32,000 nt of DNA, taken from the NCBI RefSeq assembly GCF_000014265.1, contig NC_008312.1:810001-842000 (forward strand), given 5' to 3'. This document shows positions 6,445 through 30,598 of the stretch, one piece after another. The translations under genes were made by a program, and so were the position numbers. The notes under the pieces were generated by a model. That model searched no databases. It was not told where the DNA came from and was given only the letters and a program-made list of their open reading frames with translations. The stretch comes from Trichodesmium erythraeum IMS101. GTDB lineage: Bacteria; Cyanobacteriota; Cyanobacteriia; Cyanobacteriales; Microcoleaceae. Positions within the stretch are counted from its first letter, which is position 1, and each line of letters starts with the position of its first letter.

Positions 6445-7824
6445 GTGGTAACGCTGTCTAATTCTATAATAGGGGGTCGTGACCAACAATCCACCGGTTT
6501 TGCTTGGTGGTCTGGAAACGCCCGTCTAATCAATCTATCTGGTAAACTGCTTGGTGCTCACGTAGCCCACGCAGGTTTAATTGTATTTTGGGCCGGAGCA
6601 ATGACTTTGTTTGAAGTTGCTCACTTTGTCCCAGAAAAGCCAATGTATGAACAAGGCTTAATTCTAATGCCCCACGTTGCCACTATAGGCTGGGGTGTTG
6701 GTCCTGGTGGTGAAATAGTTGACATTTTTCCATTCTTTGTAGTAGGCGTTTTACACCTAATTTCATCTGCTGTTCTGGGTTTGGGCGGAATTTATCATGC
6801 CGTTCGTGGCCCAGAAACTTTGGAAGACTATTCTTCTTTCTTTGGATATGACTGGAAAGATAAGAACCAGATGACTAATATTATTGGCTACCACTTAATT
6901 ATATTAGGTTTGGGCGCATTCTTATTAGTAATCAAAGCTGTGTTCTTGGGTGGTGTCTATGATACTTGGGCACCAGGTGGCGGTGATGTACGAGTAATTA
7001 CTAACCCTACTTTGAATCCTGCTGTTATATTTGGTTATCTACTTAAAGCGCCTTTTGGTGGTGAAGGCTGGATCATTGGCGTTAATAACATGGAAGATAT
7101 TATCGGTGGTCATATCTGGATTGGCCTAATTTGTATCTCCGGTGGTATTTGGCATATTCTAACTAAGCCTTTTGGTTGGGCACGTCGCGCTTTCATCTGG
7201 TCTGGAGAAGCTTATCTATCCTACAGTTTGGGCGCCCTGTCTTTGATGGGTTTAATTGCTGCCGCTTTCGTATGGTTTAACAACACTGCTTATCCTAGCG
7301 AATTCTATGGTCCTACTAATGCTGAAGCTTCTCAAGCTCAGTCTTTTGTGTTCTTAGTCCGTGACCAAAAATTAGGTGCTAATATTGGTTCTGCTCAAGG
7401 TCCTACTGGTCTTGGTAAGTACCTAATGCGCTCTCCCACTGGTGAGATCATATTCGGTGGTGAAACAATGCGTTTTTGGGACTTTCGTGGTCCTTGGTTA
7501 GAGCCTCTTCGTGGTCCTAACGGTTTAGACTTGAGTAAACTGAAGAACGATATTCAGCCTTGGCAAGTTCGTCGTGCTGCTGAGTACATGACTCATGCTC
7601 CTAATGGTTCTATCAACTCTGTAGGTGGTATTATTACAGATATTAACGGTTTCAATTATGTAAACCCTCGTGCTTGGTTAGCTGCCGCTCACTTTATTCT
7701 TGGTTTCTTCTTCTTAATTGGTCACTTGTGGCATGCTGGTCGCGCTCGTGCTGCTGAGGGTGGTTTTGAGAAGGGTCTGGACCGTCAAACTGAGCCAGTA
7801 CTATCTATGCCTAACCTTGACTAA
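6445..7824 (+). CDS. psbC: photosystem II CP43 reaction-centre antenna protein
   Basis: 459-aa ORF that is near-collinear with cyanobacterial CP43 as I recall it ([39 protein letters not shown] ... [25 protein letters not shown] ... [12 protein letters not shown]). The full-length large lumenal loop means it is not IsiA. The start is GTG at 6445, with GGAGG at 6431-6435. Confidence 0.95.
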
Positions 7825-7872
7825 TATCTAGTCATTGTATGTAGCTCGTTTATTGCTAGAATTCTTAAAAAG

Positions 7873-7899
7873 CCTCACCAAAATTTAGGAGAGGTTTTT
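7873..7899 (+). terminator. candidate intrinsic terminator of psbC
   Basis: The stem pairs CCTCACC (7873-7879) with GGAGAGG (7888-7894) with one mismatch. The loop is 8 nt and is followed by TTTTT (7895-7899). It lies 49 nt after the psbC stop. Confidence 0.45.
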
Positions 7900-8748
7900 A
7901 TCTAAATGTTGGCAGGAGACCCGCGCTCTCTCGTAGGGGAGCGTCGGGATGAATGCCAATAATTTTATGGTTTTACAAATAATTTGTTGAGAATGTAAAT
8001 GTCGAAAAGTAGGCAGTAGATGGTTGAAAAAGTGTACAAATTTAATTTTACCCAACTCCTCAGAACTGTTAGTATGCTGAGGATAATCTTGGGATGTGTA
8101 CACGCAAGTCTACAATAAGGCCTTAGCTACCAGGACAGAACTTAAGCTTGGTATGAACACCAAAAACAAGTGAGCTACAAAAAAACCTCAGCTATGCTGA
8201 ATAACTGAAAAAAACAGGAATATTTAGATTTTCAACAGTGAAGTAAGTAGTCTACCACTCCAGCAAGGCTTAAGAAACTTACAAGCTGCTTTCACAAACT
8301 TTTTTAGGGGACGGCTGAATATCCTAACTTCTGACTCTTAATGAGTAAAGTTAGCAACTCCTGTTTGTAATTATGCTACTCATATTGATGATGTGCCTAG
8401 TTTAAAATTAATGGTAGAAAAAATTCCTCACCGCCATGTACAAACTCATGTACAACCAGAATAATATCCGATGCTGTGAGAATTTATGCCGGAAGCTATG
8501 CAGGATGTTTGGGGAGAGCTTGCAGACTCAGAAGTTATAGCTGCTTGGGCTGCAAGCTGATCATATATTGGCGGAAATTTATTATTTATTGACCGGGAAA
8601 ATCAAATATATGAGAAGGAAGGTGTCTTCTAACTTAATTTTTATGAGTCAAAAAAAAAGGCTATTAACTATTAGCTATAATTAAATAATAACCAACTTTT
8701 TGTTTTATGGAACTAAATATGAAAGTGCTATATAGTAATATCATAATA

Positions 8749-8919
8749 GTATGAGTAATGAGTGAAAACTATGTAATAGCTTCATCTTCTTGAGGGTAAA
8801 ATGCCTGGGTTGCAGATCAGTTAGAGACTGCGGTCAGTGGTATAAGCTTCGAACACCGCAGCTAGCTCTAAGGTTATGAAATCATGCTTATGTAATTCTG
8901 AGTAAGTTTAGTAGGAAGG
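8749..8919 (+). repeat. dispersed ~180-nt repeat, copy B (abuts the start codon of the FMO gene)
   Basis: See copy A at 5036-5214. The 3' end of this copy (AAGTTTAGTAGGAAGG) supplies the purine-rich stretch immediately before the ATG at 8920. Confidence 0.7.
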
Positions 8920-10263
8920 ATGATGACAAAAGTAGCAATTATAGGTTCTGGACCTTGCGGTTTATCAATTTTACGATCTTTTCAGCAAGCTGAAGAAAAA
9001 GGACAAATAATCCCTGAATTAGTTTGTTTTGAAAAACAATCTAATTGGGGTGGTTTGTGGAATTATAGTTGGAGAACAGGATCTGACCAATATGGTGATC
9101 CAGTTCATAATAGTATGTATCGATATCTCTGGTCAAATGGACCAAAAGAATGTCTAGAATTTGCTGATTACTCTTTTGATGAACATTTTCAACAACCTAT
9201 CCCTTCTTTCCCTCCTCGTGAAGTTTTGTATGACTATATTTTAGGTCGTGCAAAAAAAAGTAATCTTAAAAAATATATTAAATTTAATACAGTAGTAAAT
9301 AATGTTGTTTTTAATGATGATCAATTTGTAATTACTTCTTTAAATAAAAAAGAAAATTCAATTTCTCAGGAAAATTTTGATTATTTAGTTGTTGCTACTG
9401 GACATTTTTCAGTTCCTTATGTTCCTGAATATGAAGGAATGAATTCTTTTCCAGGAAGAATTTTGCATAGCCATGATTTTAGAGATGCAGAAGAATTTAG
9501 AAATAAGGATGTAGTTGTTTTAGGCAGCAGTTATTCTGCAGAAGATATAGCTCTTCAATGCTATAAGTACGGCGCCAAATCAGTAACTATTGGCTATAGA
9601 AATAACCCCATAGGTTTTGAGTGGCCAGAAGGAATGAAAGAAGTTCACTATTTAGATAAACTTGAAGGCAATAAAGCAACTTTTAAGGATGGTCACACTC
9701 AAAATGTAGATGCTCTTATTTTATGTAGTGGTTATCTTCATCATTTTCCTTTTTTAGAAGAAAGTTTAAAATTAAAAACACATAATAGACTATATCCTCC
9801 TAAACTCTATAAAGGAGTTGTTTGGCAAGATAATCACAAACTATTTTATCTTGGTATGCAGGATCAATTTTATACTTTTAACATGTTTGATTGTCAAGCC
9901 TGGTATGCAAGAGATGTAATAATGGGAAAGACTCAAGTTCCAGATGATGCAGAAATTGAAAAAGATATCAATAATTGGGTAGTAAAAGAGGAAGCTTTAG
10001 AGGACTCCATTCAAATGATTGACTTTCAAACTGAGTATACAAAAGATCTTCAGGTTGCTTCTGATTATCCCAAAATAGATTTTGAATTAATTAGAACACA
10101 TCTTAAGGAATGGAAACATCATAAGGAAGAAAATATTATGACTTATAGAGATAAATCATTTTCTTCTCCAGTAACAGGAACGGTTGCGCCACTTCATCAT
10201 ACACCTTGGGTTGAAGCGATGGATGATTCAATGACAACCTTTATGAAAGCTAAATCTTCTTAA
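8920..10263 (+). CDS. tmm: flavin-containing monooxygenase, bacterial trimethylamine monooxygenase (Tmm)-like
   Basis: 447-aa ORF with FAD GxGxxG (IGSGPCG), the FMO signature FxGxxxHxxxF (FPGRILHSHDF) and the NADPH site GSSYSAED. It also has long blocks I recall from bacterial Tmm (ELVCFEKQSNWGGLWNY, MYRYLWSNGPKECLEFADY, FNMFDCQAWYARDVIMG, EWKHHKEENIMTYRD). Confidence 0.75.
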   Translation: MMTKVAIIGSGPCGLSILRSFQQAEEKGQIIPELVCFEKQSNWGGLWNYSWRTGSDQYGDPVHNSMYRYLWSNGPKECLEFADYSFDEHFQQPIPSFPPREVLYDYILGRAKKSNLKKYIKFNTVVNNVVFNDDQFVITSLNKKENSISQENFDYLVVATGHFSVPYVPEYEGMNSFPGRILHSHDFRDAEEFRNKDVVVLGSSYSAEDIALQCYKYGAKSVTIGYRNNPIGFEWPEGMKEVHYLDKLEGNKATFKDGHTQNVDALILCSGYLHHFPFLEESLKLKTHNRLYPPKLYKGVVWQDNHKLFYLGMQDQFYTFNMFDCQAWYARDVIMGKTQVPDDAEIEKDINNWVVKEEALEDSIQMIDFQTEYTKDLQVASDYPKIDFELIRTHLKEWKHHKEENIMTYRDKSFSSPVTGTVAPLHHTPWVEAMDDSMTTFMKAKSS

Positions 10264-13753: not shown

Positions 13754-14433
13754 TTTACTTGACTAAAAAAAAGATATAAATAATATTAGTTGTAGTAATT
13801 TGTTTCAGTTTTAGGAGGTTGATTAACAAAACTGCTTTTGGATAAAAAAGCACTATACAAGCTTTTCAATTAGTGTAATTATCAGATTTTTGCTCCTATG
13901 AGCTCAAATCTTTTTCTCAAATTATTCTATTGCTGTGATTGGTATAAAATATCTGATTTTTGTAACATTAGTATGGAGTTTTTAACTGTATCTTACTAGA
14001 ATTAGATGCCTTACGTTTATGTCTACTATATTTGGCAAAGTGTATAAATTCTTCTATGAGACGTTATTTTCTATATGAATTTTTGGCATTCTTAAAAGTA
14101 TTGTTGGAAGTTCTTATAGCTAATTCTAAGTTAACTTTTTTAGGACATTTTGAGGAAATTAGTTAATGAAACAGGAAATAAAAATAATTCAAATAAAATA
14201 TATTTAGGTCTGGTTGTCTAAGGCTTTTTCAGGAATAGATGAGTAAGCCCCTAAACTTGACTGTAGATGGTTTGAAATGTTCTATGAAAGTCTATAGAGA
14301 GTATTTGGGAGGAACAGGGAATTTATAGAGAAAATAGTCGAATATATTTGTCTCTTACTGCCCTCTGTTATAGTCAGCCCAAAGCTATATTTAACTCAAG
14401 TTTTTTAGATTAATTTTGAATAGGAGAAAAAAA

Positions 14434-15072
14434 ATGGTTCTTTATCTTGACTCAGCAATAGTAACAGAAGCAAGAGTGGCAAGTAAATTTGGTTGGATAT
14501 CTGGGGTGACAACTAACCCGACTTTGCTGGCAAAAAGTGATTTGTCTCCAGAAGCAACTTTAAAGGAACTTTCAGAAATTATTTCTGGAGAATTATATTA
14601 TCAACTTACTGCTACTAGCTTTGATGAGATGATAGCGGAAGGGAAGGCTGCATCAAAATTAATTGGCCATAAAATAGTTCTGAAAATTCCGGCAACTGCT
14701 ACTGGTTTTCAAGCGACATCTCATTTGTCTAAAAATATTGACTGTTCGGTGACCGGAATATATCATCCTGCTCAAGCATTAGTGGCTGCTGAAACAGGCG
14801 CTAAATATGCGATCGCTTATGTTAACCGGGCAACTAGGCTTTTGGGAGATGGTTTAAAACTGGTGAGAGAGATGGCAAAAGTACTTGAAGGTAGCTCTAC
14901 AGAAATTTTAGCAGCAAGTGTGAAGTCTCCTGATGAAGCTACTGAAACTTTATTGGCCGGTGCTCACCATCTAACGTTACCATTTTCTGTGTTGCAGACA
15001 ATAACTACCCATGAGTTATCAGAGCAAACTTTTAAGGAGTTTAATGAAAAAGGAAGAGGAATTATGTATTAA
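14434..15072 (+). CDS. transaldolase-family protein (small TalC / fructose-6-phosphate aldolase type)
   Basis: The N-terminus LYLDSA...GVTTNPTLL and the Schiff-base lysine context VLKIPAT are typical of the ~220-aa transaldolase/FSA subfamily. I prefer the ATG at 14434, preceded by AGGAG at 14422-14426, over the TTG at 14416 in the ORF track. Confidence 0.8.
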   Translation: MVLYLDSAIVTEARVASKFGWISGVTTNPTLLAKSDLSPEATLKELSEIISGELYYQLTATSFDEMIAEGKAASKLIGHKIVLKIPATATGFQATSHLSKNIDCSVTGIYHPAQALVAAETGAKYAIAYVNRATRLLGDGLKLVREMAKVLEGSSTEILAASVKSPDEATETLLAGAHHLTLPFSVLQTITTHELSEQTFKEFNEKGRGIMY

Positions 15073-16612: not shown

Positions 16613-17206
16613 TTAGGCGGATAATTTGATAAAGAACCAAAAATACCTTACTAAAGATACACCAGAAGGTAAGCGAGCATGGTCAAATTTGGTAAACAGC
16701 CTTTTAGCGGACATAATTGATGATCTATCCAGGTCTGCACCTGTTAAATTAGCGTTATAGAGTAAAGTATTACTTAGATTTGTATTTCTTAAATCTGCCC
16801 AGGATAGTTGGGCATCTTTTAAGTTGGCTCGGCTGAGGTTAGCCCCTTTCAGATTAGCTGAGTCCAAGTTAGCTCCTAACATTTTTGTTTTATGTAATTG
16901 TGTGTTCATTAATGAAGCTTCACTCAGATTCACTTTGTTGAGATTTACTCCGGTGAAGTTGATCCCATCTAATTTGGCTTTGAATAAATTGGGCTTAATT
17001 AATCGAGTTCTGCGAAAGTCTTTTCTGCCCTCTTCGAGAGCTAAGTGAAGCTGTTCATTGTTCAGGGTTTCTATGCCAAGTAGGTTATAGAAACCTGTGG
17101 CTAAATTCTCAATGAAATTTTGTTTTTCTTGCTTACTTGGAACCATTTTTGTGCTATCATGATCAAGTTTATATTTGAAATTTACTGGTAATTTTTGGGT
17201 AGACAT
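16613..17206 (-). CDS. pentapeptide-repeat protein
   Basis: 197-aa ORF with about 20 consecutive A(D/N)LxX pentapeptides (GINFTGVNLNKVNLSEASLMNTQL...GANLDSANLKGANLSRANLKDAQLSWADLRNTNLSNTLLYNANLTGADL). Its ATG overlaps the upstream stop codon (TAATG at 17204-17208). Confidence 0.9.
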   Translation of the reverse strand: MSTQKLPVNFKYKLDHDSTKMVPSKQEKQNFIENLATGFYNLLGIETLNNEQLHLALEEGRKDFRRTRLIKPNLFKAKLDGINFTGVNLNKVNLSEASLMNTQLHKTKMLGANLDSANLKGANLSRANLKDAQLSWADLRNTNLSNTLLYNANLTGADLDRSSIMSAKRLFTKFDHARLPSGVSLVRYFWFFIKLSA

Positions 17207-18897
17207 TAGTGATTTCCTATGATGGTGTTATATTTTTTTTGAATAGCTTTCTTTAGGCGATCGCCTAAATTAATACTGGAAGTTAATAGCTCTTGCAGGT
17301 AGCCAATTTGGCGAGTTGCTAATGATTGATTTACATGGGAATGTTGTAGATATCCTTGTACATATTGTATTGTTTTAATTAATTCCTTAACCTGAGATTC
17401 CGTCTGGAAGTATTCTAAGGCTAAGAGTATGATAGAATCACATCCTTGATGAATAAGGTTTTTAGCATCGTTAGCGGCAGTATTTTCTGGGTCGTTGATA
17501 CTATCTGTTAACTGCTGAAAACCATTTTTAATTTGTTCTACAGCAGTTTCAACTGTTTCTATATTGTCTCTTAAATGCTGGGATTTTTCGATATCTCTGG
17601 CAAATTTGACGTACTTAACAAAGGGTGGATAATTGCACTTTCCAGTGCGTCTTAGCTCGCTAAAAAATCCTCTTAACAGCTTCTTGTCCAGTTCTTGCAT
17701 GTCTGCTTGGTTGTTGTCTAAGCTAGAAATAGTCTTATTAATGAACACATCTCTGGCGTTAATTACTGCTGTACTTTTAGAAAGTTGAACATCTTCTCGT
17801 TTTGAATAAGAAATGGTGATCCAGATAGCTACAGTTGAGGTGATCACGGATATGCTCATAACAAATAGACTCTGTCCGAGGTCTGCCCACTGAAGGCTAA
17901 ATAATTTCTTGGTGAATAATACTATTGCTACTCTTGTTGCTTCTGTTCCAGATTTAATTTCTCCTTTTTCATTAAACCGTGAGTCATAAATTTTGGGTCT
18001 AACCGCTTTGAGGTAGACTAGATCACTACCATAGTTTTTGACTTCTTTTATTTTTTGCTGGTACTTTTCCTTGGGAACTTTGAGATCGTTATCCCTTATA
18101 GCTTCTAGCTCGTTAGCTTTAGGACATGCAGGCCATTGTTCTATGTCCTTGTTTTTATAGTAGCTATAACCGCCCAGGTTAAATCTATCTGCATATGGAC
18201 CATGAGCAGCTAGGTAGAGTTCATCCCTTTTGGGGTCGTTGGGGGGCAGTTGTTCGAGCTTACGCTCTAAGGTATCACATCTGTTGCGAGTTTTCTCCAG
18301 AGTTTTATTATTTTGAATATCTGAAATTTCCTTTTCCAAAGGTTCAAAAATAGATTCTTGAACTAACTGTTCTCCCAATTTTCGACTCAAACCGGATTGA
18401 TTTAATAGTAGTTCTGAACCGACTCCTGATGTGATGGTTAGGATGAGGTTGATGGCAATGAAACCGCTGCTACCAATTCGAGCAAAGCGTATGCTTATGG
18501 GTTGATTGGAGGCGGCACCGGTAGCGAGAGCGTTGCCTAGTTTAATTAGCCCTATGTTAGCCAATACAGCAATAGGCCAGGTGAGTATTCCCATGCTGTC
18601 GAACATAAAAATTAAGAATGGCAAGGTTGTGAATGCATTCCACCAATTGGCAAAGGTTGTAACGGAGGCTGTTACTAGAGAGGATTTTTCTAATTCTTTA
18701 GATACATAACCGGTGCCATGTAGTTCATTGGGATCGACGCAAACCAGATTTTTTAACCAATAACACCAGAAAAGAGGGTTCTTTTTAGAGGTTTTGTTCA
18801 CAGACTCTAGGTTTTCAAGCTGTGAGGGGCTTTGGAATTTTAGCCAAGAGATAATATTTTGAGTATTCGGTATTGTCGGTTGTTGTGGTAGTTTCAT
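17206..18897 (-). CDS. hypothetical membrane protein with a long coiled-coil region (DUF4407-like topology, unverified)
   Basis: 563-aa ORF with hydrophobic helices at about residues 85-125, 140-165 and 340-365. Charged heptad-like segments separate them, and the C-terminal ~190 aa are helical. I recognised no catalytic motif. The DUF4407 resemblance rests on topology only. Confidence 0.55.
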   Translation of the reverse strand: MKLPQQPTIPNTQNIISWLKFQSPSQLENLESVNKTSKKNPLFWCYWLKNLVCVDPNELHGTGYVSKELEKSSLVTASVTTFANWWNAFTTLPFLIFMFDSMGILTWPIAVLANIGLIKLGNALATGAASNQPISIRFARIGSSGFIAINLILTITSGVGSELLLNQSGLSRKLGEQLVQESIFEPLEKEISDIQNNKTLEKTRNRCDTLERKLEQLPPNDPKRDELYLAAHGPYADRFNLGGYSYYKNKDIEQWPACPKANELEAIRDNDLKVPKEKYQQKIKEVKNYGSDLVYLKAVRPKIYDSRFNEKGEIKSGTEATRVAIVLFTKKLFSLQWADLGQSLFVMSISVITSTVAIWITISYSKREDVQLSKSTAVINARDVFINKTISSLDNNQADMQELDKKLLRGFFSELRRTGKCNYPPFVKYVKFARDIEKSQHLRDNIETVETAVEQIKNGFQQLTDSINDPENTAANDAKNLIHQGCDSIILLALEYFQTESQVKELIKTIQYVQGYLQHSHVNQSLATRQIGYLQELLTSSINLGDRLKKAIQKKYNTIIGNH

Positions 18898-18917: not shown

Positions 18918-19300
18918 TATGGGTTTGATCAATTGGGTTGAGTGAGGAATATTTTTCTATCGGTGAGAAAATTGATTTTGTTGCAAAAATAATTTCATGG
19001 TTTTGTTTGGTTCGATTTTATAGCACTACCTATTTAAGGCGGTGGGCGGTAAATGCTGTTTACGAAGCATTGCTGTAGAAAGAATTTGTCTCAGGGATTA
19101 CTTTTGAATGCATTCTTGTGTTTAGCACTATATGGGTTTGATATAGTGAGTTGAGTTAGGGATATTTTTCTATCAACAGAAAATGAATTTTGTTGCAAAA
19201 ATAATTTTCTGGTTTTATTTTGTTGGGTTTTATAGCACTACCCATTTAGGGCAAGGGTCTTGGTAAGTCATGCTTGCGGAGCGTTTGCTTGGAAATACCG
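18918..19300. repeat. tandem direct duplication (2 x ~170 bp, period ~213 bp) of the leader/promoter region of the 17206-18897 operon
   Basis: Copy 1 spans 18918-19085 and copy 2 spans 19131-19300. Both share TATGGGTTTGAT...GTTGAGT.AGG.ATATTTTTCTATC...TTTTGTTGCAAAAATAATTT...TTTTATAGCACTACC.ATTTA.GGC, with about 80% identity over the first ~125 nt. The similarity also covers the CAT...TTGTGTTT immediately 5' of each copy. Confidence 0.8.
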
Positions 19301-19420
19301 AAATTTAATAAAGAATTATTTGCCTTAGAAACACTCAGCAATAAATGGATATATTTTTGAAGGGCTGAAAACCTGGTAGTTTTTTCGATAAAAAAAATGG
19401 TAATACCAATATGAATTCAT
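19289..19420 (+). pseudogene. fragment of an Rpn-family (PD-(D/E)XK, TIGR01784-type) nuclease gene
   Basis: Positions 19289-19362 are about 90% identical at the nucleotide level to 23513-23586 inside the intact Rpn gene, which encode LELPKFNKELSALETLSDKWIYF. Weaker protein-level similarity continues for ~60 nt (F.KGAENLV). There is no start codon, and stop codons interrupt the reading frame. Confidence 0.75.
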
Positions 19421-19609: not shown

Positions 19610-20479
19610 ATGGTCAAAACCAAAAACACCCTTTTGTCTCATACTGATTTAGTAAAATCCTATTTGGACATTGAAGTACTAGGGCAAGTTATGACAAAAA
19701 ATTCTGACTCACAAGATGAGTATCTAGCTAAAATTAGGAATGTTTGTAATGGGAGTGCTGAAGATTTAGAACTATATGAGGCGATCGCTAACTTTTGTCG
19801 GCAAACCAATGATAGAAAGCGCCGTCTAGCATTTGTTCCTTTATTTAAGAAAATTGAAAAATTAAGAGGACTAAAAAAAGTTAGCAATTCTAGCGAGTAT
19901 TATCATGACTACCAAGATATATTGCAGGAGACTTGGGAAGAGTTTTACAAAAAGTTTCCCGCTGAGTTTGAACCTGCAGGCCAATCTTTAAAAGGAAGTT
20001 TGGTAACTTGGATTAACGAAAAACTGCGTTTGAGATACAAGGTAATAGACTTATATCCCAAGTCTAGAGATGACAATAAAGGAAATAAACCCTTAACCCC
20101 AAAACAGAGATTTAACCAAATAATCAGAAGTAAACCAAAATCTCTGGATGCTCCTAATAGTACCAATGATTTTGATAATGATTTGACCATTGGCGATTTC
20201 TTAGAGAGTGAGGACCCTGGACCTCTGGAGGAGGCTATTGGGGAAGAGCAAAAACAAAACATTAATATGTTCTTGGAAATAGTCAAGGATAGTAAATATC
20301 ATATGCGCAGCTGTCCCGAATGTACTTTTCAGGCTGTTGCTCAACGTCTTTTTTTTGAGGAACCTTCGAAAAATTTGAAGCAAGTTGCATTGGAGTTCGG
20401 AGTTAATTATAGTAGTTTACGGACTTTTTGGCTACGGACTTGTAAGAAAATTTCTCAGGAACTATCCCCAGAACTATAA
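19610..20479 (+). CDS. hypothetical protein, divergent ECF/sigma-70-like (region 2 and region 4 HTH) with an N-terminal extension
   Basis: In this 289-aa ORF, the block DYQDILQETWEEFYKKF...GSLVTWINEKLRLRYKVIDLY resembles sigma region 2. An acidic linker follows, then FQAVAQRLFFEEPSKNLKQVALEFGVNYSSLRTFWLRTCKKISQEL resembles the region 4 HTH. This is a pattern-level call only. Confidence 0.4.
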   Translation: MVKTKNTLLSHTDLVKSYLDIEVLGQVMTKNSDSQDEYLAKIRNVCNGSAEDLELYEAIANFCRQTNDRKRRLAFVPLFKKIEKLRGLKKVSNSSEYYHDYQDILQETWEEFYKKFPAEFEPAGQSLKGSLVTWINEKLRLRYKVIDLYPKSRDDNKGNKPLTPKQRFNQIIRSKPKSLDAPNSTNDFDNDLTIGDFLESEDPGPLEEAIGEEQKQNINMFLEIVKDSKYHMRSCPECTFQAVAQRLFFEEPSKNLKQVALEFGVNYSSLRTFWLRTCKKISQELSPEL

Positions 20480-20514
20480 CAAAATTTACAAGAATTAATT
20501 CAGGAGAAATAACT

Positions 20515-21303
20515 ATGCAAACAGAAACTTTTGGGCTAAAAATACCTATTACTGAAGATGCTCGCCGATACGCTGAAAAATTTGCCGCTGAACAAAAAGG
20601 TAAAGCTAAAAGAACTAAGGTTTATTTAAACACTTTAGCTGTATGTGCGGTGCATAATTTCCTAAAAATTGTGCAGATAGAAACTGATCTAGAAAATAGT
20701 AGCGCCTGGAACCCCATAGAGCGTCTTTGTTATGATATAGCAGATTTATTTATTCCCCACATAGATATTTCTGTGGAATGTCGCCCTGTATTACCAGACC
20801 AAGAAGAAATAACTTTGCCACCGGAAGTTAGACGGGATCGGCTCGGTTATGTTTTTGTTAGGTTTGATAATGATTTACAGGAAGCAGAATTATTGGGATT
20901 TTTGTCTATTATGGATCCAGATGATGATTTTGAAGATTTAGAATTAGAGGAGTTGGAGCCTTTGGAGAATTTCTTGACTGTCTTGGAGCGAGTTGAGTAT
21001 ATGTCTCAGGTTTATGAGGACCCTGTGTTTGCAAAGGTTGAGGAGTGTTTAAATATAAAATCTCGACTGGAGTTGGTCCTTCAGTTGGAAAAAATACACC
21101 GCATGGAACCGCACTATTCCCACACGGCGAAGGCGACTGCGGTATTTTATAATTATCGCCCAGAGAGCAATTTGGCGACCGCGAGCAGAAGCAAGGAGAA
21201 AGTTAATGAGTTCACTGATGAGGAGTTAGAACAATTGCGAGAATTAGGAGATTTAGCGGAGGCATTAATGGAGAAATTGGCGCAGGTTTTGCCACAGAAC
21301 TAA
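20515..21303 (+). CDS. DUF1822-family protein (cyanobacteria-restricted, function unknown)
   Basis: In this 262-aa ORF, the N-terminal LKIPITEDARRYAEKFAAEQ...KVYLNTLAVCAVHNFLK matches my recollection of the DUF1822 N-terminal consensus. It is shorter than the usual ~390 aa and has a strongly acidic central segment (DPDDDFEDLELEELEPLE). It lies 35 nt downstream of the sigma-like ORF. Confidence 0.55.
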   Translation: MQTETFGLKIPITEDARRYAEKFAAEQKGKAKRTKVYLNTLAVCAVHNFLKIVQIETDLENSSAWNPIERLCYDIADLFIPHIDISVECRPVLPDQEEITLPPEVRRDRLGYVFVRFDNDLQEAELLGFLSIMDPDDDFEDLELEELEPLENFLTVLERVEYMSQVYEDPVFAKVEECLNIKSRLELVLQLEKIHRMEPHYSHTAKATAVFYNYRPESNLATASRSKEKVNEFTDEELEQLRELGDLAEALMEKLAQVLPQN

Positions 21304-21587: not shown

Positions 21588-22475
21588 ATGAAAGTTAATT
21601 TTTCGGAAGTGAGCCAACGCCATATCTGCATTGCTCTATTTATATTTTGTTCTCTTTTACAACGTTCGATTTCTCCTTTATTTTTACTTCCTTTGTTGTT
21701 ACAAGAAAAACGTAATTTATTGGGACAAATTGCTGAGGTTAAATTTAATAACGATAATAATAATTTACAATTTTTACAGCAACACAGTCAACAACTGAAT
21801 AATTTAGAGCGTCAATTTCAAAAGGGACAAAAAACTGTTGATAAACTACAACATAAAGTTCAGACTCAGGACACTCGCCAGAATTTAATTTTATCTAAAA
21901 GTAGTAAGCAAAGTAATCAAATTTGTTTGTTGGAAGATCGGATTAATTCTATTCAGGAAAGGTTTAAGTCGGTGCCTTCAAAGGTTGTGCCGATTCAACG
22001 TCGTACCCTATTGGCAATTGATTCTGCAAATTTGGATGGTGCTGCTAAAAGTTTGAATATGAAGGTTGATTATGAAAGATTAAAACGCTATGTTAATGTT
22101 CATTTTGGTTCTCTGGAAGCTCGAATTTATGTGGGGAAGTATGATAATAGTTCTCGGCAGAAATTGTGGTTTAATTACTTAGAAAAAAATGGATATGTGG
22201 TGAAGACAAAGCCTGTTACGGTCTATGGAAATACAGTTAAGGCTAATGTTGATGTGGATTTGGCTTTGGATATTAGGGAGCATGGGGTGAATTTCAAAAA
22301 TGTGGTTTTATGTAGTGGGGATGGTGATTATTTGCCACTTGTTGAACAATTACAAGGGTTGGGTATTAAGGTGATAGTTCTTGCTTCCCCAGGACATACT
22401 AACCACTTTTTGCAAAGGCAAGCGGATGAGTATATTAGTTTGATTGATATTATGGGGGAAATTAGCGATCGCTAA
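21588..22475 (+). CDS. NYN-domain (LabA/DUF88-like, PIN-fold RNase) protein with an N-terminal Q-rich coiled coil
   Basis: In the C-terminal ~160 aa, LLAIDSANLDGAAK ... VDVDLALDI ... VLCSGDGDYLPLVEQLQGLGIKVIVL carry the conserved acidic residues of NYN/LabA domains. The start codon is uncertain, because the first ~40 codons are hydrophobic and low-complexity. Confidence 0.75.
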   Translation: MKVNFSEVSQRHICIALFIFCSLLQRSISPLFLLPLLLQEKRNLLGQIAEVKFNNDNNNLQFLQQHSQQLNNLERQFQKGQKTVDKLQHKVQTQDTRQNLILSKSSKQSNQICLLEDRINSIQERFKSVPSKVVPIQRRTLLAIDSANLDGAAKSLNMKVDYERLKRYVNVHFGSLEARIYVGKYDNSSRQKLWFNYLEKNGYVVKTKPVTVYGNTVKANVDVDLALDIREHGVNFKNVVLCSGDGDYLPLVEQLQGLGIKVIVLASPGHTNHFLQRQADEYISLIDIMGEISDR

Positions 22476-23049: not shown

Positions 23050-23985
23050 ATGAGATTTATTAGTCCGAAAACTGACTTTGCTTTTAAAAGAATCTTCGGT
23101 TCTAACCGCAGTCAAAAAATCCTGATTAGTTTTCTCAATGCTATAGTTTATGACAATCAAAATATTATCCAATCTCTAGAAATTATTGACCCCTATAATG
23201 CTGGCTATACTAGCACTATTAAGGATACTTATCTGGATGTGAGAGCTTTATTAGATAATGGTTCAACAGTTATTATTGAGATGCAAGTCTTAAACGTAGA
23301 AGGTTTTGAAAAACGAGTAATTTATAATTTGGCAAAAACCTATGGAAGTCAATTAAGTCTAAGAACGGAACAACCAAGATTACAACCATTTATAACCTTG
23401 ATAATTACGGATTTTTTGCTATTTCAAGAGAGTGGCAAAATGATTAATAAATTTAGATTTAAAGAAGACACAGAGTTCTTTAATTACCGAGATGAATTAA
23501 CTTTAATATTTTTGGAACTACCGAAATTTAATAAAGAATTATCTGCTTTAGAAACACTCAGCGATAAATGGATATATTTTCTTAAATCTGCTCCTAGTTT
23601 GGAGATAATACCCTCTTCATTGGGAGAAGTATCAGAAATAGAAGCAGCATTAAATATCGCTAACCGAGCTGATTTAAATAATCAAGAACTAGAGGAGTTA
23701 CATAAACAAGAAATATTTATTGGTGATAGACAAGGAGAGGTGATTTTAGCTAAACAAGAGGGCGTAAAAGAAGGAGAAGAACAAGGGAAAATTCAGCAAG
23801 CAATTAAACAAGTATTGCGTCTAGCTCGGCGAATATTGGGGGAAGTTTCACCGGAAATTCAGGCTCGAATACAACAGCTATCTTTAGAAAAATTAGATTT
23901 ATTAGCAGAAGAGATATTTGAACTGACTACTATGGAAAATCTGGTGAATTGGTTAGAGACTGGAACAGAAAGTTTGGAGAAATAG
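23050..23985 (+). CDS. Rpn-family recombination-promoting nuclease / putative transposase (PD-(D/E)XK, TIGR01784) with a DUF4351-like tail
   Basis: The 311-aa ORF has the N-terminal ISPKTDFAFKRIFG, the nuclease core YLDVRA...VIIEMQV and LELPKFNK...SDKWIYFLK. The C-terminal tail is IQARIQQLSLEKLDLLAEEIFEL..NLVNWL. Confidence 0.85.
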   Translation: MRFISPKTDFAFKRIFGSNRSQKILISFLNAIVYDNQNIIQSLEIIDPYNAGYTSTIKDTYLDVRALLDNGSTVIIEMQVLNVEGFEKRVIYNLAKTYGSQLSLRTEQPRLQPFITLIITDFLLFQESGKMINKFRFKEDTEFFNYRDELTLIFLELPKFNKELSALETLSDKWIYFLKSAPSLEIIPSSLGEVSEIEAALNIANRADLNNQELEELHKQEIFIGDRQGEVILAKQEGVKEGEEQGKIQQAIKQVLRLARRILGEVSPEIQARIQQLSLEKLDLLAEEIFELTTMENLVNWLETGTESLEK

Positions 23986-24105: not shown

Positions 24106-24223
24106 AAATCAAATCGCTGAATATAGGGAGGGATTTATGATTTTACCTGACCTATGCGGAGTTTACTATAAGTAATATTAATTTCGCAAAATATATTACA
24201 ATTTTTTTATGTGAGTGAAGTTA

Positions 24224-27200
24224 ATGAATAATAATCAACAAAGTTATCATCGTTTAATTGCACAGTTACGTCACTGCGCGGGTGAGGCAGAAGTTAAGCA
24301 GGTTTTAAATAGCTACCTTGAACTAAATACTTCGGAGTTATTAGAGGTAATGGCTCAGGAGGTTGAAGGTTTGAGAGATAATATGGACTGGGATGGGGCT
24401 AATTCTCTGTTAAGTCTGGCCCTAGAGGTGGGAGATGTGTTGGGAAGTTCTGAGAGGGAGGTTTCTCTAAGGAAGGAAATTGGGGATTTTTTGAGCAAAA
24501 TGGGGCGGCGTGAATATGAAGTTAGTCAGTTTTCTTGGGCAGTGCAGTTTTATGAACTGACTTTAAGGATATATCGAGAGATTAAGGACCGTCCAGGGGA
24601 AGTTGATGCTATTAATGGTTTGGGTAATAGTTATAGGTTTTTGAGAGAAAGGGAAAGGGCAACTGCTCTTTTTCAAGAGTCTTTGGCTATTGCTAGGGAA
24701 ATTGAATATGGCCAGGGGGAGGTTGATGGCCTCTATGGTTTAGGTGCCATGGAGCATTTTTTGGGAGAATATGAGTCGGCAAAAGCTTATGTTCAAGAGG
24801 CTTTAACTATTGCAGAGGCGATCGGGTATACAAAAGGGAAAGCTAATGCTTTTGATGGTTTGGGTCATGTTTGTGGAGGTTTGGGAGAATACGAAGAGGC
24901 GATTAATTTCTATCAACAGTCTTTACCTATCTTCCGAGAAATCAAAGATCGTAAAGAGGAAGCCAGTGTCCTGAATAATTTGGGTGCTGCTTACTATTCT
25001 TTGGGGAAATACGAAACGGCGATTAATTTCTATCAACAGTCTTTACGTATCTGCCAAGAACTCAAATATCGTAAAGGGGAAGCTTATGTTCTGAATAATT
25101 TGGGTCTTGATTACAATTCTTTGGGGCAATATGAAACGGCGATTAATTTCTTTCAACAGTCTTTACCTATCTACCGAGAAATCAAAGATCGTAAAGAGGA
25201 AGCCAATGTCCTGAAGAATTTGGATGATGCTTACTATTCTTTGGGGCAACACAAAAGGAGGATTGATGTCCTTAAACAGTCTTTACCTATCAAGCAAGAA
25301 CTCAAAGATCGTAAAGGGGAAGCCAGTGTCCTGAATAATTTGGGTGTTGCTTACCATCATGTAGGGCAATACGAAAAGGCGATTAATTTCTATCAACAGT
25401 CTTTATCTATCAATCAAGAACTCAAAGATCGTGAAGGGGAAGCCAATGTCCTGAATAATTTGGGTTATGCTTACGATAATTGGGGGCAATACGAAACGGC
25501 GATTAATTTCTATCAACAGTCTTTACCTATCTCCCGGAAAATCAAAAATCGTGAATATGAAGTTTGTGTCCTGAATAATTTGGGTGTTGCTTACTATAAG
25601 TTGGCGCAATACGAAAGGGCGATTAATTCCTATCAACGGTCTTTACCTATCTCCCGGGAAATCAAAAATCGTGAATATGAAGTTTGTGTCCTGAATAATT
25701 TAGGGGATGCCAACTACTATCTAGGACAACACCAAGAAGCCATCGACCTTTACCACAAATCTCTCGCCATCTCCCAAAAATACCAATACCGTTGGGCAGA
25801 AGCAGACTCCCGCAACGGTCTAGGCCGCATCTACTACTCCCAGGAAAAATACCAACCTGCCCTAGAATTTTATCAAGAATGCTTTGCCATCAAAGCAGAA
25901 ATAGGAGACATTCCCGGAGAAGCCAAAGGCCGAACCAACGTCGCCCTCGCCTACAAATCCCTCCAAGAACCCCAACGAGCCATCGAATTCCTCCAACAGT
26001 CCTTAGAAATTTTCCAACAAATCTCCGACCCAGAAGGACAAGCAGACTGCCAAAATCACTTAGGAGTAGCCTACCAAGACCTAAAACAACACCAACAAGC
26101 CAGAAATCACTACCAAGCATCCCTGGAAATAGCCACCCCCGAAGGAATGCCCACAATTTGCCTCAATGCCGGCCAAAACTATGGCCACCTAGAATTTCAA
26201 GAAAACAACTGGTCAGCAGCGATCGCTCCCTACCAAAAAGCCATCGAAGCAGCAGAAATACTGCGAGTCCGTTCCCTCACCGATAACCGCCGGCAAAAAG
26301 TAATGATTGATGCCATAGAAATATACGCCAACACCATCCAATGCCACATCAACCTCCAACAATACGACCTCGCCCTCGAATACACCGAACGTTACCGCTG
26401 TAAACAACTAGTAGACCTAATAGCCAGTAAAGACCTCTACCAAGACGAGAAAATGCCCGAAAAGGTGAGAAACCTAATGCAAGAATTCGAAAAACTCCAA
26501 GGGCAAATAGAAAACATTCGCGATCGCGACACCAGGGAAGACAGTAACAATAACCGCAGTAGCATCCTCCCCGCAACCAGATATTGGCGTGCCCAAAACG
26601 AAATTCGCAACAAAAGCATCATCGAAAAGGAAATCGCAAAAAGAAAAATCTTGGAACAAATCAGAAAACAAGACCCAGTCATCGCCCAAGGCATCCAAGT
26701 AGCCCACCTAAAATTTAGCCAACTGCAACAACTCATCAACAACGAACATAGTGCCATCCTCAGTTTTTACAGCACCAAAACCGACACCCACATATTCATC
26801 CTGCGGCAAAACAGCATCCAGCTCCACTCCTGTCCCCAGCAAGGCAGAGACAACCTGCAACAATGGCTCAAAGAAAACTGGTTCAACCTCTACGTACCCG
26901 ACAAAAACAAAAACGACAACGAGAACAAAGAAAACTACCAAAAATGGCAGCAACAAATGCCCGACCTTCTCGCAGAACTAGCCAACCGCTTAAACATCCA
27001 AAAACTGATCCAGAATCACCTAGAAGATATCGAGGAACTGATCCTCATCCCCCACCAGCAACTACACCTAATCCCCCTAGGCGCCCTGCCCATCAGTGAT
27101 AGCGAATATCTCCATGACAAATACCTCATTCGCACCTTAGCCAGTTGCCAGATCCTGAGTTTTTGCCAAGACCGCGTTCAACTCCAAACAGCTCCCACCT

Positions 27201-28024
27201 ACGGCATCGTGGAAAACACACAACTCGACCTACCCTTCAGCCAATTAGAAGCCGAAACCGTCGCCCAACTATGTCAAGTCAGCCCCGACAAACATCTCCA
27301 AGGAGCAGAAGCCACAGTCCCCAAATACAGAGAACTCTTAAAACAAATCAACCGACTCCTATCGAGTCATCACGCCGTATCTCGAATAGACAACAACCTA
27401 GAGTCAGCCCTCATGCTAGCCGAAAACCAAAAAATAACCTTAGGAGAACTCCTCACCCCCGCCTATCGTTTCCCGGAATTAGAAGAAGTATTCCTCTCGT
27501 GCTGCGAAACCAACCTAGGCACCCCCCAACCCACCGACGACATGCTCACCCTGAATACAGGTTTCCTATCTGCAGGTGCCCGTGGAGTGATCAGCACCCT
27601 CTGGGAAGTAGATGACTTAGCATCCTGCATTTTTTCCATTATCTATCACCGACTGCGGGCAGAAGGTATAGACAGAGTCAGGGCAGTGCAAAAAACCCAA
27701 CAAACCATGGTCAAGATGACAGAAAAGCAACTCCAACAAGAAATCAAAACATTCAAAAAGCAACAGAAAAAAAGATACAAAAGGGAATTAGAAGCACTCA
27801 CCGAGGAACAAAGGGACCTCGAAACTCAAGAACCTCAAAGCAAAGATTCTCCAGAATACCAAGCCTGGAAGGAAAAGCTAAATAATGCCATCCAAAAATA
27901 CGTTCGCAAAGACCAAGAACAACGGGAGTTTGAACTTCGCTTAAAAGAAGCCCGCAAAAGAGAATATCCATTTTCCCATCCAGTGTATTGGAGTAGTTTT
28001 ATTTGTGCAGGTTTGAGAGATTAA
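24224..28024 (+). CDS. TPR-repeat / CHAT-domain (caspase-like) protease, 1,266 aa
   Basis: There are about 14 consecutive 40-aa TPR-type units (…AINFYQQSLPI.REIKDRKGEA.VLNNLG.AY..LGQYE…). A helical middle region follows, then a C-terminal CHAT domain with the His (LLSSHHAVS) and Cys (EVFLSCCETNLG) dyad contexts and the terminal HPVYWSSFICAG motif. I prefer the ATG at 24224; GTG at 24215 is an alternative. Confidence 0.9.
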   Translation: MNNNQQSYHRLIAQLRHCAGEAEVKQVLNSYLELNTSELLEVMAQEVEGLRDNMDWDGANSLLSLALEVGDVLGSSEREVSLRKEIGDFLSKMGRREYEVSQFSWAVQFYELTLRIYREIKDRPGEVDAINGLGNSYRFLRERERATALFQESLAIAREIEYGQGEVDGLYGLGAMEHFLGEYESAKAYVQEALTIAEAIGYTKGKANAFDGLGHVCGGLGEYEEAINFYQQSLPIFREIKDRKEEASVLNNLGAAYYSLGKYETAINFYQQSLRICQELKYRKGEAYVLNNLGLDYNSLGQYETAINFFQQSLPIYREIKDRKEEANVLKNLDDAYYSLGQHKRRIDVLKQSLPIKQELKDRKGEASVLNNLGVAYHHVGQYEKAINFYQQSLSINQELKDREGEANVLNNLGYAYDNWGQYETAINFYQQSLPISRKIKNREYEVCVLNNLGVAYYKLAQYERAINSYQRSLPISREIKNREYEVCVLNNLGDANYYLGQHQEAIDLYHKSLAISQKYQYRWAEADSRNGLGRIYYSQEKYQPALEFYQECFAIKAEIGDIPGEAKGRTNVALAYKSLQEPQRAIEFLQQSLEIFQQISDPEGQADCQNHLGVAYQDLKQHQQARNHYQASLEIATPEGMPTICLNAGQNYGHLEFQENNWSAAIAPYQKAIEAAEILRVRSLTDNRRQKVMIDAIEIYANTIQCHINLQQYDLALEYTERYRCKQLVDLIASKDLYQDEKMPEKVRNLMQEFEKLQGQIENIRDRDTREDSNNNRSSILPATRYWRAQNEIRNKSIIEKEIAKRKILEQIRKQDPVIAQGIQVAHLKFSQLQQLINNEHSAILSFYSTKTDTHIFILRQNSIQLHSCPQQGRDNLQQWLKENWFNLYVPDKNKNDNENKENYQKWQQQMPDLLAELANRLNIQKLIQNHLEDIEELILIPHQQLHLIPLGALPISDSEYLHDKYLIRTLASCQILSFCQDRVQLQTAPTYGIVENTQLDLPFSQLEAETVAQLCQVSPDKHLQGAEATVPKYRELLKQINRLLSSHHAVSRIDNNLESALMLAENQKITLGELLTPAYRFPELEEVFLSCCETNLGTPQPTDDMLTLNTGFLSAGARGVISTLWEVDDLASCIFSIIYHRLRAEGIDRVRAVQKTQQTMVKMTEKQLQQEIKTFKKQQKKRYKRELEALTEEQRDLETQEPQSKDSPEYQAWKEKLNNAIQKYVRKDQEQREFELRLKEARKREYPFSHPVYWSSFICAGLRD
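24885..25710 (+). repeat. seven near-identical in-frame 120-nt tandem units (TPR units 4-10 of the CHAT gene)
   Basis: GATTAATTTCTATCAACAGTCTTTACCTATC recurs exactly every 120 nt, at 24901, 25021, 25141, 25261 (diverged), 25381, 25501 and 25621. Units 9 and 10 share an identical 50-nt block coding NREYEVCVLNNLG. Confidence 0.9.
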
Positions 28025-30297: not shown

Positions 30298-30419
30298 ACA
30301 CCCCATAACCCCATACCCTCAAACCCTCACAGTTTTATACCCTCACACCCTCAAACCCTCAAACCCTCAAACCCTCACACCCTCAAACCCTCACAGTTTT
30401 ATACCCTCACACCCCCCCA
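30298..30419. repeat. C-rich octamer tandem repeat tract (CCCTCA[A/C]A)n with a ~60-nt higher-order repeat
   Basis: Positions 30298-30419 read CACCCCATAACCCCATA CCCTCAAA CCCTCACAGTTTTATA CCCTCACA CCCTCAAA CCCTCAAA CCCTCAAA CCCTCACA CCCTCAAA CCCTCACAGTTTTATA CCCTCACA CCCCCCC. The motif CCCTCACAGTTTTATACCCTCACACCC occurs twice. The complementary strand carries GGG runs spaced by 5 nt. Confidence 0.9.
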
Positions 30420-30598
30420 CTAAAGAAAATGCAAAAAAATTTTTGAGAAATGGCATTAGAATAATTCACAACACCAAAAAAAATGAGGTAGGTATCTGGG
30501 TTTAACTTTTATCTTTAAGGGCCTATATTTGAAATGGAGTTGATATAATAACAAAAGTTAAATTTAATTAAGATTAATAGTAAATCTGAAGATTTTCT

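Follow-up and report, generated by a model that had tools for sequence, protein, structure and literature searches.

A probably mobile, two-part TPR-CHAT gene in Trichodesmium erythraeum: an abrupt codon-style switch as the probable front of a spreading repeat array

We analysed a 32,000-nucleotide (nt) stretch of the Trichodesmium erythraeum IMS101 genome (contig NC_008312.1, positions 810,001 to 842,000; hereafter the window, in whose coordinates all positions are given), which carries on its forward strand a TPR-CHAT (caspase-like) gene with an abrupt, in-frame change of codon style. The gene encodes, from the N- to the C-terminus, an N-terminal domain, about 10 TPR units and a CHAT domain, within an open reading frame (ORF) at 24215/24224–28024 (+). 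The abruptness of the switch is probably due to the spread of an internal TPR array in a gene that was already divided into two compositional halves. The A/C-rich half, which includes the CHAT domain, is foreign to Trichodesmium and has probably been carried along by a mobile, fast-evolving gene; the T-ending codons at the extreme 3' end are, judging from their conservation, held by a nucleotide-level constraint on a ~30-nt element.

The first-pass annotation, made from the letters of this stretch alone, had based the switch on two hand counts, A18 C2 G20 T20 at 24601–24660 and A19 C26 G10 T5 at 25921–25980, both of which are exact. Third codon positions (A3, C3, G3 and T3) have the composition A.23, C.12, G.24, T.40 in 24224–25708, A.37, C.43, G.09, T.11 in 25709–27964, and A.25, C.05, G.15, T.55 in the final 20 codons; the difference between the 5' part and the patch is highly significant (chi-square 276, p 1.7e-59), and the maximum-likelihood position of a single change point is 25709. 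The A/C-rich module (25709–27964, +), consisting of non-array TPRs, a linker and the CHAT domain, has an A+C fraction of 0.669, which is 7.5 standard deviations above the mean of equal-length windows elsewhere in the 32 kb (mean 0.475, standard deviation 0.026, maximum 0.543), and all of the 20 other window ORFs, with C3 of 0.05–0.23 and T3 of 0.29–0.48, remain far from it. The four-fold degenerate sites of the module (A.27, C.56, G.09, T.09) differ from those of other window genes in C (.56 versus.14) and T (.09 versus.44), and leucine is encoded by CTN rather than TTR. The bias is a C-for-T exchange at synonymous sites, and essentially confined to them, given that T>C-type amino-acid replacements show no excess at conserved protein columns. 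The 5' part had been likened to the rest of the window, which holds for its typical T3 but not for its G3, as it is G3-rich and shifted from A to G at four-fold sites (G.27 versus.11, A.12 versus.31 in other window genes); the N-terminal domain and the diverged TPR units that follow it (24224–24879, +) are G3/T3-rich and C3-poor (third-position G.24–.40, C.02–.08).

Overlapping ORFs are indeed present across the patch (25792–26286, 27145–27615 and, on the minus strand, 26437–26757), and their interpretation as a by-product of T depletion fits: the matching regions of two homologous loci, L085 and L003, hold only shorter off-frame ORFs (80–128 amino acids (aa)) of discordant length and order, a comparison in which positions were not mapped residue by residue. 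On the same terms, there is no sign of a conserved overlapping gene in another frame. The sole other A/C-rich spot in the window is an intergenic 8-nt tandem repeat at 30301–30422 (about 15 units, CCCTCAAA / CCCTCACA), located upstream of a DNA methylase gene.

The origin of the 5' junction became apparent from three further Trichodesmium alleles, L005, which comes from Trichodesmium sp. MAG_R02, L002, a contig from a marine metagenome with 96% identity to L005, and L095. In the window allele, the diverged TPR units are followed by a 120-nt tandem array, one TPR per unit, with T/G-ending codons (24880–25701, +; 6.8 copies, 84% matches in Tandem Repeats Finder), and both the 120-nt periodicity and the reading frame continue through the junction, as originally described. 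Identity of the window to all three alleles rises from ~55% upstream to 100% from 25699 on, ~10 nt short of the compositional change point at 25709, and over 25720–26440 the window is 99.6% identical to L005 and L002. A sudden step in identity that keeps the frame and falls inside a conserved motif is what is expected of a mosaic gene, and the proposed breakpoint of homologous-recombination type is thus upheld; it lies inside the conserved TPR N-x-L-G motif. The breakpoint and the change point together span 25696–25709 (+), with the crossover point inside the conserved L-G motif (…CTGAATAA|TTTAGGGGATGCC…; in short, …AATAA|TTTAGGGGATGCC…).

It is the TPR side, and not the CHAT-bearing patch, that was replaced, contrary to the initial proposal. 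Upstream of 25699, the other alleles retain ~520 nt of TPR units that are still A/C-rich (in L002, third-position C is.33–.52 throughout), and L005 undergoes the same composition flip ~500 nt farther upstream, after 26 array units. The final ~4.3 array units of the window (~25200–25698) sit where the other alleles have A/C-rich TPR units, and, as the three- and four-way alignments are gapless, the replacement, of ~520 nt or 4.3 units, kept the register. Because the other alleles are A/C-rich upstream of 25699 and the window carries extra T/G-type units there, the sharp junction is the front of the array spread, and we infer that conversion ran from the array over the A/C-rich units. The array is present in 6.8 copies in the window versus 26 in the sister species L005, and the last two units of the window are near-duplicates. 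This is a case, resolved to the base pair, of an internal repeat array overwriting adjacent units within a gene, an event detectable only through the opposite codon styles of its two sides; it also serves as a warning for annotation, since composition-based calls of alien patches in repeat proteins can reverse the direction of the event. As a separate observation, the gene called in L095 begins only at 824 (625 aa, CHAT only), leaving 1–823 outside it, and the first ~130 nt of that contig are unlike the window or L005, so this allele may be 5'-truncated or rearranged.

The two-part composition is shared with a more distant relative. L003, a whole-gene homologue on a 45%-GC contig, has the same polarity as the window, with G3.27–.30 and C3.18–.20 in its 5' part and C3.39–.51 and G3.13–.16 in its 3' part. 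Since L005 and L003 share this polarity, the two-part composition predates the array-spread event. A composition flip common to orthologues had been named in the first-pass annotation as pointing away from a horizontal patch, as had congruence of the N- and C-terminal parts, and both are observed here. The N-domain and the CHAT module of the window are both closest to L003, at similar divergence in protein and at synonymous sites (N-terminal 200 codons: 60–69% aa identity, synonymous codon mismatch.35–.47; CHAT module: 58–70% identity, mismatch.25–.49). With the N-terminus of L003 the N-domain shares 62% identity, and with the Okeania homologues, which it also heads, 38–45%; L004 and L085 carry a different N-domain; a protein search with the N-terminal part returned only generic TPR-level matches at 42–56%. 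In their relation to L003, the two ends of the gene are congruent, and only the middle TPR region turns over.

To follow the bias across the family, we retrieved 80 genomic loci of CHAT-module homologues and annotated their neighbour-joining tree with third-position C/(C+T). The C-for-T bias follows the gene phylogeny: in clade I (the Trichodesmium alleles, L085, L003 and L004) the module has C/(C+T) of.67–.78 against host backgrounds of.22–.42, in two clades of Okeania, Dapis and Trichodesmium-paralogue sequences.39–.60 against.19–.37, and in the Nostoc and Microcoleus homologues there is no excess. The patch itself, at.78 versus a background of.22, is atypical for its host genome, confirming that the A/C-rich part is compositionally foreign, and of 1.55 Mb of cyanobacterial DNA, only the Trichodesmium alleles contain A/C-rich tracts of more than 2 kb.

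Movement of the gene family between hosts, also suggested at the outset, is supported by the synonymous divergence within clade I, which has not reached saturation between hosts with GC contents of 35% and 45%. The mismatch between the window and L085 is.30 versus.51 expected at saturation, and that between L003 and L004 is.10 at 83% protein identity, implying that the protein is fast-evolving and clade I young relative to its hosts. Relatives are also plasmid-borne, with DUF1822 partners, and the gene therefore appears to be horizontally mobile. Between the window and L005, each half of the gene has a synonymous mismatch of.03, versus.24–.26 in two comparable neighbour genes, and synteny is broken, the CHAT gene having different neighbourhoods in the two, which points to a recent exchange of the TPR-CHAT gene between two Trichodesmium species. 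We would thus be dealing with a caspase-like, immune-type gene exchanged between Trichodesmium species and wider marine filamentous cyanobacteria, with a composition foreign to all of them. Searches in IMG/VR for a viral origin yielded no relatives and no motif, and a metagenome scan for further close alleles returned distant relatives only.

In other hosts, the bias is being lost. Polarised synonymous changes in Okeania comprise 17 C>T versus 7 T>C and 11 A>G versus 4 G>A, and those in L003/L004 15 C>T versus 4 T>C. The equilibrium values of C/(C+T) calculated from these counts and the third-position base counts, ~.32 and ~.39, equal the host backgrounds. With a net loss of C and A and an equilibrium at host background, the bias is decaying in both lineages, and in Trichodesmium it would likewise be a relic.

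The reversion to T/G-ending codons at the 3' end, read in the first-pass annotation as a second recombination junction, is present, but there is no junction with host-type DNA at this site. Instead, positions 27986–28015 (+) constitute a nucleotide-conserved, G/T-rich element, TAT TGG AGT nnn TTT ATT TGT GCn GGn TTG, with synonymous sites frozen across clades I–III. In 15 representatives of these clades, 121 columns are invariant at the amino-acid level, but in only 11 of these do all sequences share one codon, 4 of the 11 being the consecutive T-ending AGT, TTT, ATT and TGT of the element; among ~31 other invariant two-fold pyrimidine-ending columns, none is uniformly T. Exactly one copy of the 20-nt core is present in 22/22 clade I–III loci, at the CHAT 3' ends of L001–L016, L023, L031, L032, L085, L086 and L095, and in 0/74 other loci; the motif has one match in the window versus 0.01 expected. 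In the Nostoc and Microcoleus homologues, the same sites vary freely. Either of two features could be a pointer to mechanisms of regulation or diversification specific to such conflict systems: the freezing of synonymous sites in ~30 nt across clades sharing just ~40% protein identity, and a 2.3-kb sense strand with almost no G or T in synonymous positions and without an identifiable donor. No RNA family of the Rfam type and no structure was detected; long-range pairing of the element with 26852–26864 or 26918–26938 was considered and is unsupported by covariation, so we take the complementarity to be chance.

Taken together, these results are best accommodated by a model to which we assign a probability of about 0.6. 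The TPR-CHAT gene would be a fast-evolving, horizontally mobile conflict-system gene, with an ancestral form that was already bipartite, the 5' N-domain and first TPRs leaning to G/T and the 3' TPR and CHAT module using C/A-ending codons. In the window allele, the T/G-type 120-nt TPR array would have been extended in register to 25698, through either gene conversion or unequal crossing-over at the conserved L-G motif, overwriting ~520 nt of A/C-rich TPR units and giving a formerly softer transition its abrupt, in-frame character. The A/C-rich composition would be inherited with the gene between genomes, relaxing to host composition over time, and nucleotide-level constraint on the 3' element would hold the T-ending codons there. 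Of these points, the breakpoint, the array spread, the shared polarity, the distribution over clades, the decay in other hosts and the conserved element are direct results, whereas the direction of conversion, the horizontal mobility and the relic status of the bias in Trichodesmium are deduced. The skew itself may stem from an unknown donor or replicon, from strand-switching A-to-G mutational exposure or from selection for G/U-poor mRNA.

Several observations weigh against this model. A donor with a patch-like background (C3/G3 ~5, A3/T3 ~3.4) was found nowhere among 96 loci, plasmids and viral contigs sampled, and, as no sampled background resembles the patch, donor codon usage is hypothetical. 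C<->T flux among the Trichodesmium alleles is balanced (3 versus 4 synonymous changes, 6 versus 5 overall) and not dominated by C>T, although these counts are tiny and confounded by recombination, many differences among the alleles being recombinant blocks. The finding that the gene is less diverged than its neighbours concerns two neighbouring genes only. Finally, the DUF1822 and sigma-like partner genes show similar synonymous divergence between the window and L004 and yet are host-like in both hosts, which is awkward for a simple co-transferred relic and keeps explanations other than a relic alive.

The model of the first-pass annotation, in which the 3' 2.25 kb including the CHAT domain was swapped in from a xenologous or paralogous CHAT gene with breakpoints at 25708 and 27965, rightly anticipated a genuine breakpoint in a conserved motif (at 25699) and a patch that is compositionally foreign, and the patch is near-identical between species. 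It is nevertheless largely refuted, and we give it little chance: the other alleles stay A/C-rich upstream of the breakpoint, the N-part was shared between species as recently as the patch (synonymous mismatch.03), the N-domain and C-module are congruent toward L003, which has the same polarity, and the 3' boundary is the conserved element of all clades I–III rather than a junction. Gene-intrinsic mutation that switches strands could generate both halves of the skew. Single-strand exposure of opposite strands would produce G for A on the sense strand in the 5' part and C for T (antisense A-to-G) in the 3' part, possibly through convergent sense and antisense transcription or through recurrent breakage and resection around the unstable TPR array, which varies from 6.8 to 26 copies. 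The four-fold shifts agree with this scheme in direction (A to G in the N-part, T to C in the patch), the synonymous first position of leucine codons is shifted too, indicating a nucleotide-level rather than a tRNA-level cause, and the polarity common to L003 and the balanced C<->T flux also speak for it. We still regard it as quite unlikely, since the bias is decaying rather than maintained in Okeania and L003/L004, the skew ends inside the ORF, ~60 nt short of the stop codon, with no skew in the intergenic flanks, T>C-type replacements are not in excess at conserved columns, promoter-like sites occur at chance frequency, and the size of the effect is far above the skew of the highly transcribed psbC.

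In favour of selection on the mRNA, the bias is limited to coding sequence and, within it, to synonymous positions. A G/U-poor, A/C-rich message would be unable to self-fold and would lack sites for a U- or G-specific endoribonuclease, which could be the NYN nuclease encoded by the linked gene or a different RNase of abortive infection, so that the executioner protease would still be made while other RNAs are destroyed. NYN genes with 63% identity do adjoin clade I CHAT genes in two unrelated contexts, and the divergent partner genes in Okeania are also C3-enriched and G3-poor on their sense strands; yet the 5' 1.5 kb of the same mRNA are G/U-rich, the bias decays in other hosts, NYN specificity is an assumption of the scheme, and no RNA family or structure was detected, making this account improbable. 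Against both it and strand-specific mutation, the polarised substitutions reveal no active maintenance in the two other measurable lineages. Translational selection, in which the patch would represent the optimal codons of the organism, could point to psbC, which is highly expressed, also lies in the window and favours C in its two-fold boxes (C/(C+T).49 versus.20 in other genes). Its four-fold sites, however, prefer T (.63; GCT, GGT, CGT, ACT, CCT), whereas the patch uses GCC, ACC, CCC and CTC (T.09), so translational optimisation was rejected as scarcely credible. GC-biased gene conversion was rejected likewise, because the patch gains only C and the N-part only G, never both. A replication-type DNA-strand skew is inconsistent with associated genes that are C-enriched on the sense strand whichever strand they occupy (in Okeania, and in a pair encoding a 563-aa and a pentapeptide protein in the window) and that also differ in position relative to CHAT between the window and L005. 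Scans for promoters and terminators gave results at chance level. A more speculative reading, which we consider unlikely, would treat the bipartite skew as the footprint of a process tied to the conflict-system gene, that is, A-to-G exposure centred on the TPR array or a G/U-poor message that survives RNases, with the element at 27986–28015 as a functional RNA or DNA site, which could be, for example, a recombination anchor for CHAT cassette exchange or an antisense or regulatory site.

Mosaic genes formed by homologous recombination between diverged alleles are well known, for example the penicillin-binding protein genes of Streptococcus and Neisseria. As in these, blocks of the TPR-CHAT gene match different alleles, the breakpoints are sharp, keep the frame and fall in conserved motifs, and some segments have diverged much less than the sequence around them; but its two blocks differ in strand composition as well as in sequence, and its junction stems from the spread of an internal array instead of the import of a foreign block. 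Tandem arrays in repeat proteins (TPR, ankyrin, leucine-rich repeat) undergo concerted evolution, expansion and contraction, and the 120-nt units of TPR-CHAT, 84–90% identical, differing in copy number between sister species (6.8 vs 26) and replacing their neighbours in register, conform to this pattern. In contrast to the usual arrays, the homogenised units are opposite in codon style to those they replaced, so that the conversion front is visible as a composition step. Under the model of Lawrence and Ochman, acquired genes of atypical composition ameliorate toward the host. The TPR-CHAT gene likewise is foreign to every host, shows net C>T and A>G change toward host equilibrium in two lineages and occurs in defence-island and plasmid contexts; unlike in ameliorating genes, its skew is strand-asymmetric (C >> G, A >> T) and bipartite within one gene, with no donor found, and we know of no genome-wide codon usage with such a strand-asymmetric, bipartite skew. 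Vertebrate mitochondrial genes have an A/C-rich sense strand owing to deamination of an exposed single strand, and share with the patch G- and T-poor third positions and a dominance of transitions. This is a resemblance only, TPR-CHAT being a chromosomal bacterial gene in which the skew reverses within the ORF, and to our knowledge there is no replication-linked strand exposure of this gene.

The TPR-CHAT product (1266 aa from ATG) matches the CHAT model PF12770 over residues 926–1266 (E 3.2e-34, exceeding the curated cut-off) and TPR_12 in 10 stretches (E 2.7e-119). An identical protein is recorded on 7 contigs, one longer than 1 Mb, on the basis of which we rejected an assembly chimera. Within 27368–27505 (+), a His-His motif (SSHHA, 27368–27373) and a Cys-Cys motif (LSCCETN, 27500–27505) occupy columns that are invariant in alignments of 14 homologues, and they are a putative clan-CD catalytic dyad of the CHAT domain. 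Going by its sequence, the gene looks functional rather than decayed. Within the CHAT domain, the allele alignment delineates a K/E/Q-rich hypervariable insert (27714–27953, +), with 3 haplotypes of ~82% identity among 4 alleles that are otherwise 96–100% identical, and over the module, replacement and synonymous changes occur at about equal frequency.

The genomic neighbourhood is of conflict-system style. A gene for a sigma-factor-like protein of 289 aa and a DUF1822 gene (19610–21303, +) form a pair that is also found next to the CHAT homologue of L004 and on a Picosynechococcus plasmid, where it lies beside a second CHAT-TPR gene (locus 1–2096), ~5 kb from the match; extracytoplasmic function (ECF) sigma factors and DUF1822 have been linked to caspase-type conflict systems (PMC8195603). 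They are followed by an NYN-domain nuclease gene of host-like composition (21588–22475, +), 63% identical to the NYN gene beside the CHAT homologue in L085. Also in the neighbourhood are XisI, a PD-(D/E)XK protein, DUF2817, a C5 DNA methylase and the PADLOC candidate C3a124 (563 aa) with a pentapeptide protein. With the caspase-type conflict systems (PMC8195603) and with Csx29, the TPR-CHAT protein of type III-E CRISPR (clustered regularly interspaced short palindromic repeats) systems (PMC10028731), the gene shares the combination of TPR and CHAT, the conserved His and Cys motifs and the sigma-like and DUF1822 neighbours. It differs from Csx29 Craspase in that the window is without Cas7-11, other cas genes and a CRISPR array. 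Pfam scans of 18 window ORFs (omitting 14416–15072 and 16613–17206, with recorded Pfam labels TAL_FSA and Pentapeptide) found no cas families, and the window contains no CRISPR-like repeats. On the basis of these scans we rejected a type III-E CRISPR Craspase locus, which would be linked to Cas7-11/gRAMP and a CRISPR array, and likewise a diversity-generating retroelement, as the scanned ORFs and recorded Pfam labels contain no reverse transcriptase domain and the window holds no second copy of any patch segment.

Some minor observations concern the neighbouring genes. The pentapeptide-repeat gene and the 563-aa gene (16613–18897, −) have the highest C3 (.23) among the ordinary genes of the window. 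They lie directly downstream of CHAT in L005 (7243–9527) and 5 kb upstream of it in the window, and this displacement indicates that synteny around CHAT has been rearranged. Okeania homologues are accompanied by two divergently transcribed partner genes of ~516 aa (with a C-terminal membrane region) and ~159 aa, without a Pfam match, at 7431–9453 (−) in L012, 7611–9618 (−) in L007 and matching sites in L006 and L010; their sense strands are C3-enriched and G3-poor relative to their neighbours. The 563-aa protein of the window shows no homology to the Okeania 516-aa partner. At 18918–19252, intergenic and upstream of the minus-strand 563-aa gene, a ~213-nt segment is tandemly duplicated (86–87% identity). 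A 69-nt repeat (94% identity) occurs at 23512–23580, within the PDDEXK_2 (PD-(D/E)XK) gene, and at 19289–19357, in the intergenic spacer that precedes the sigma-like gene, where it is probably a paralogue remnant.

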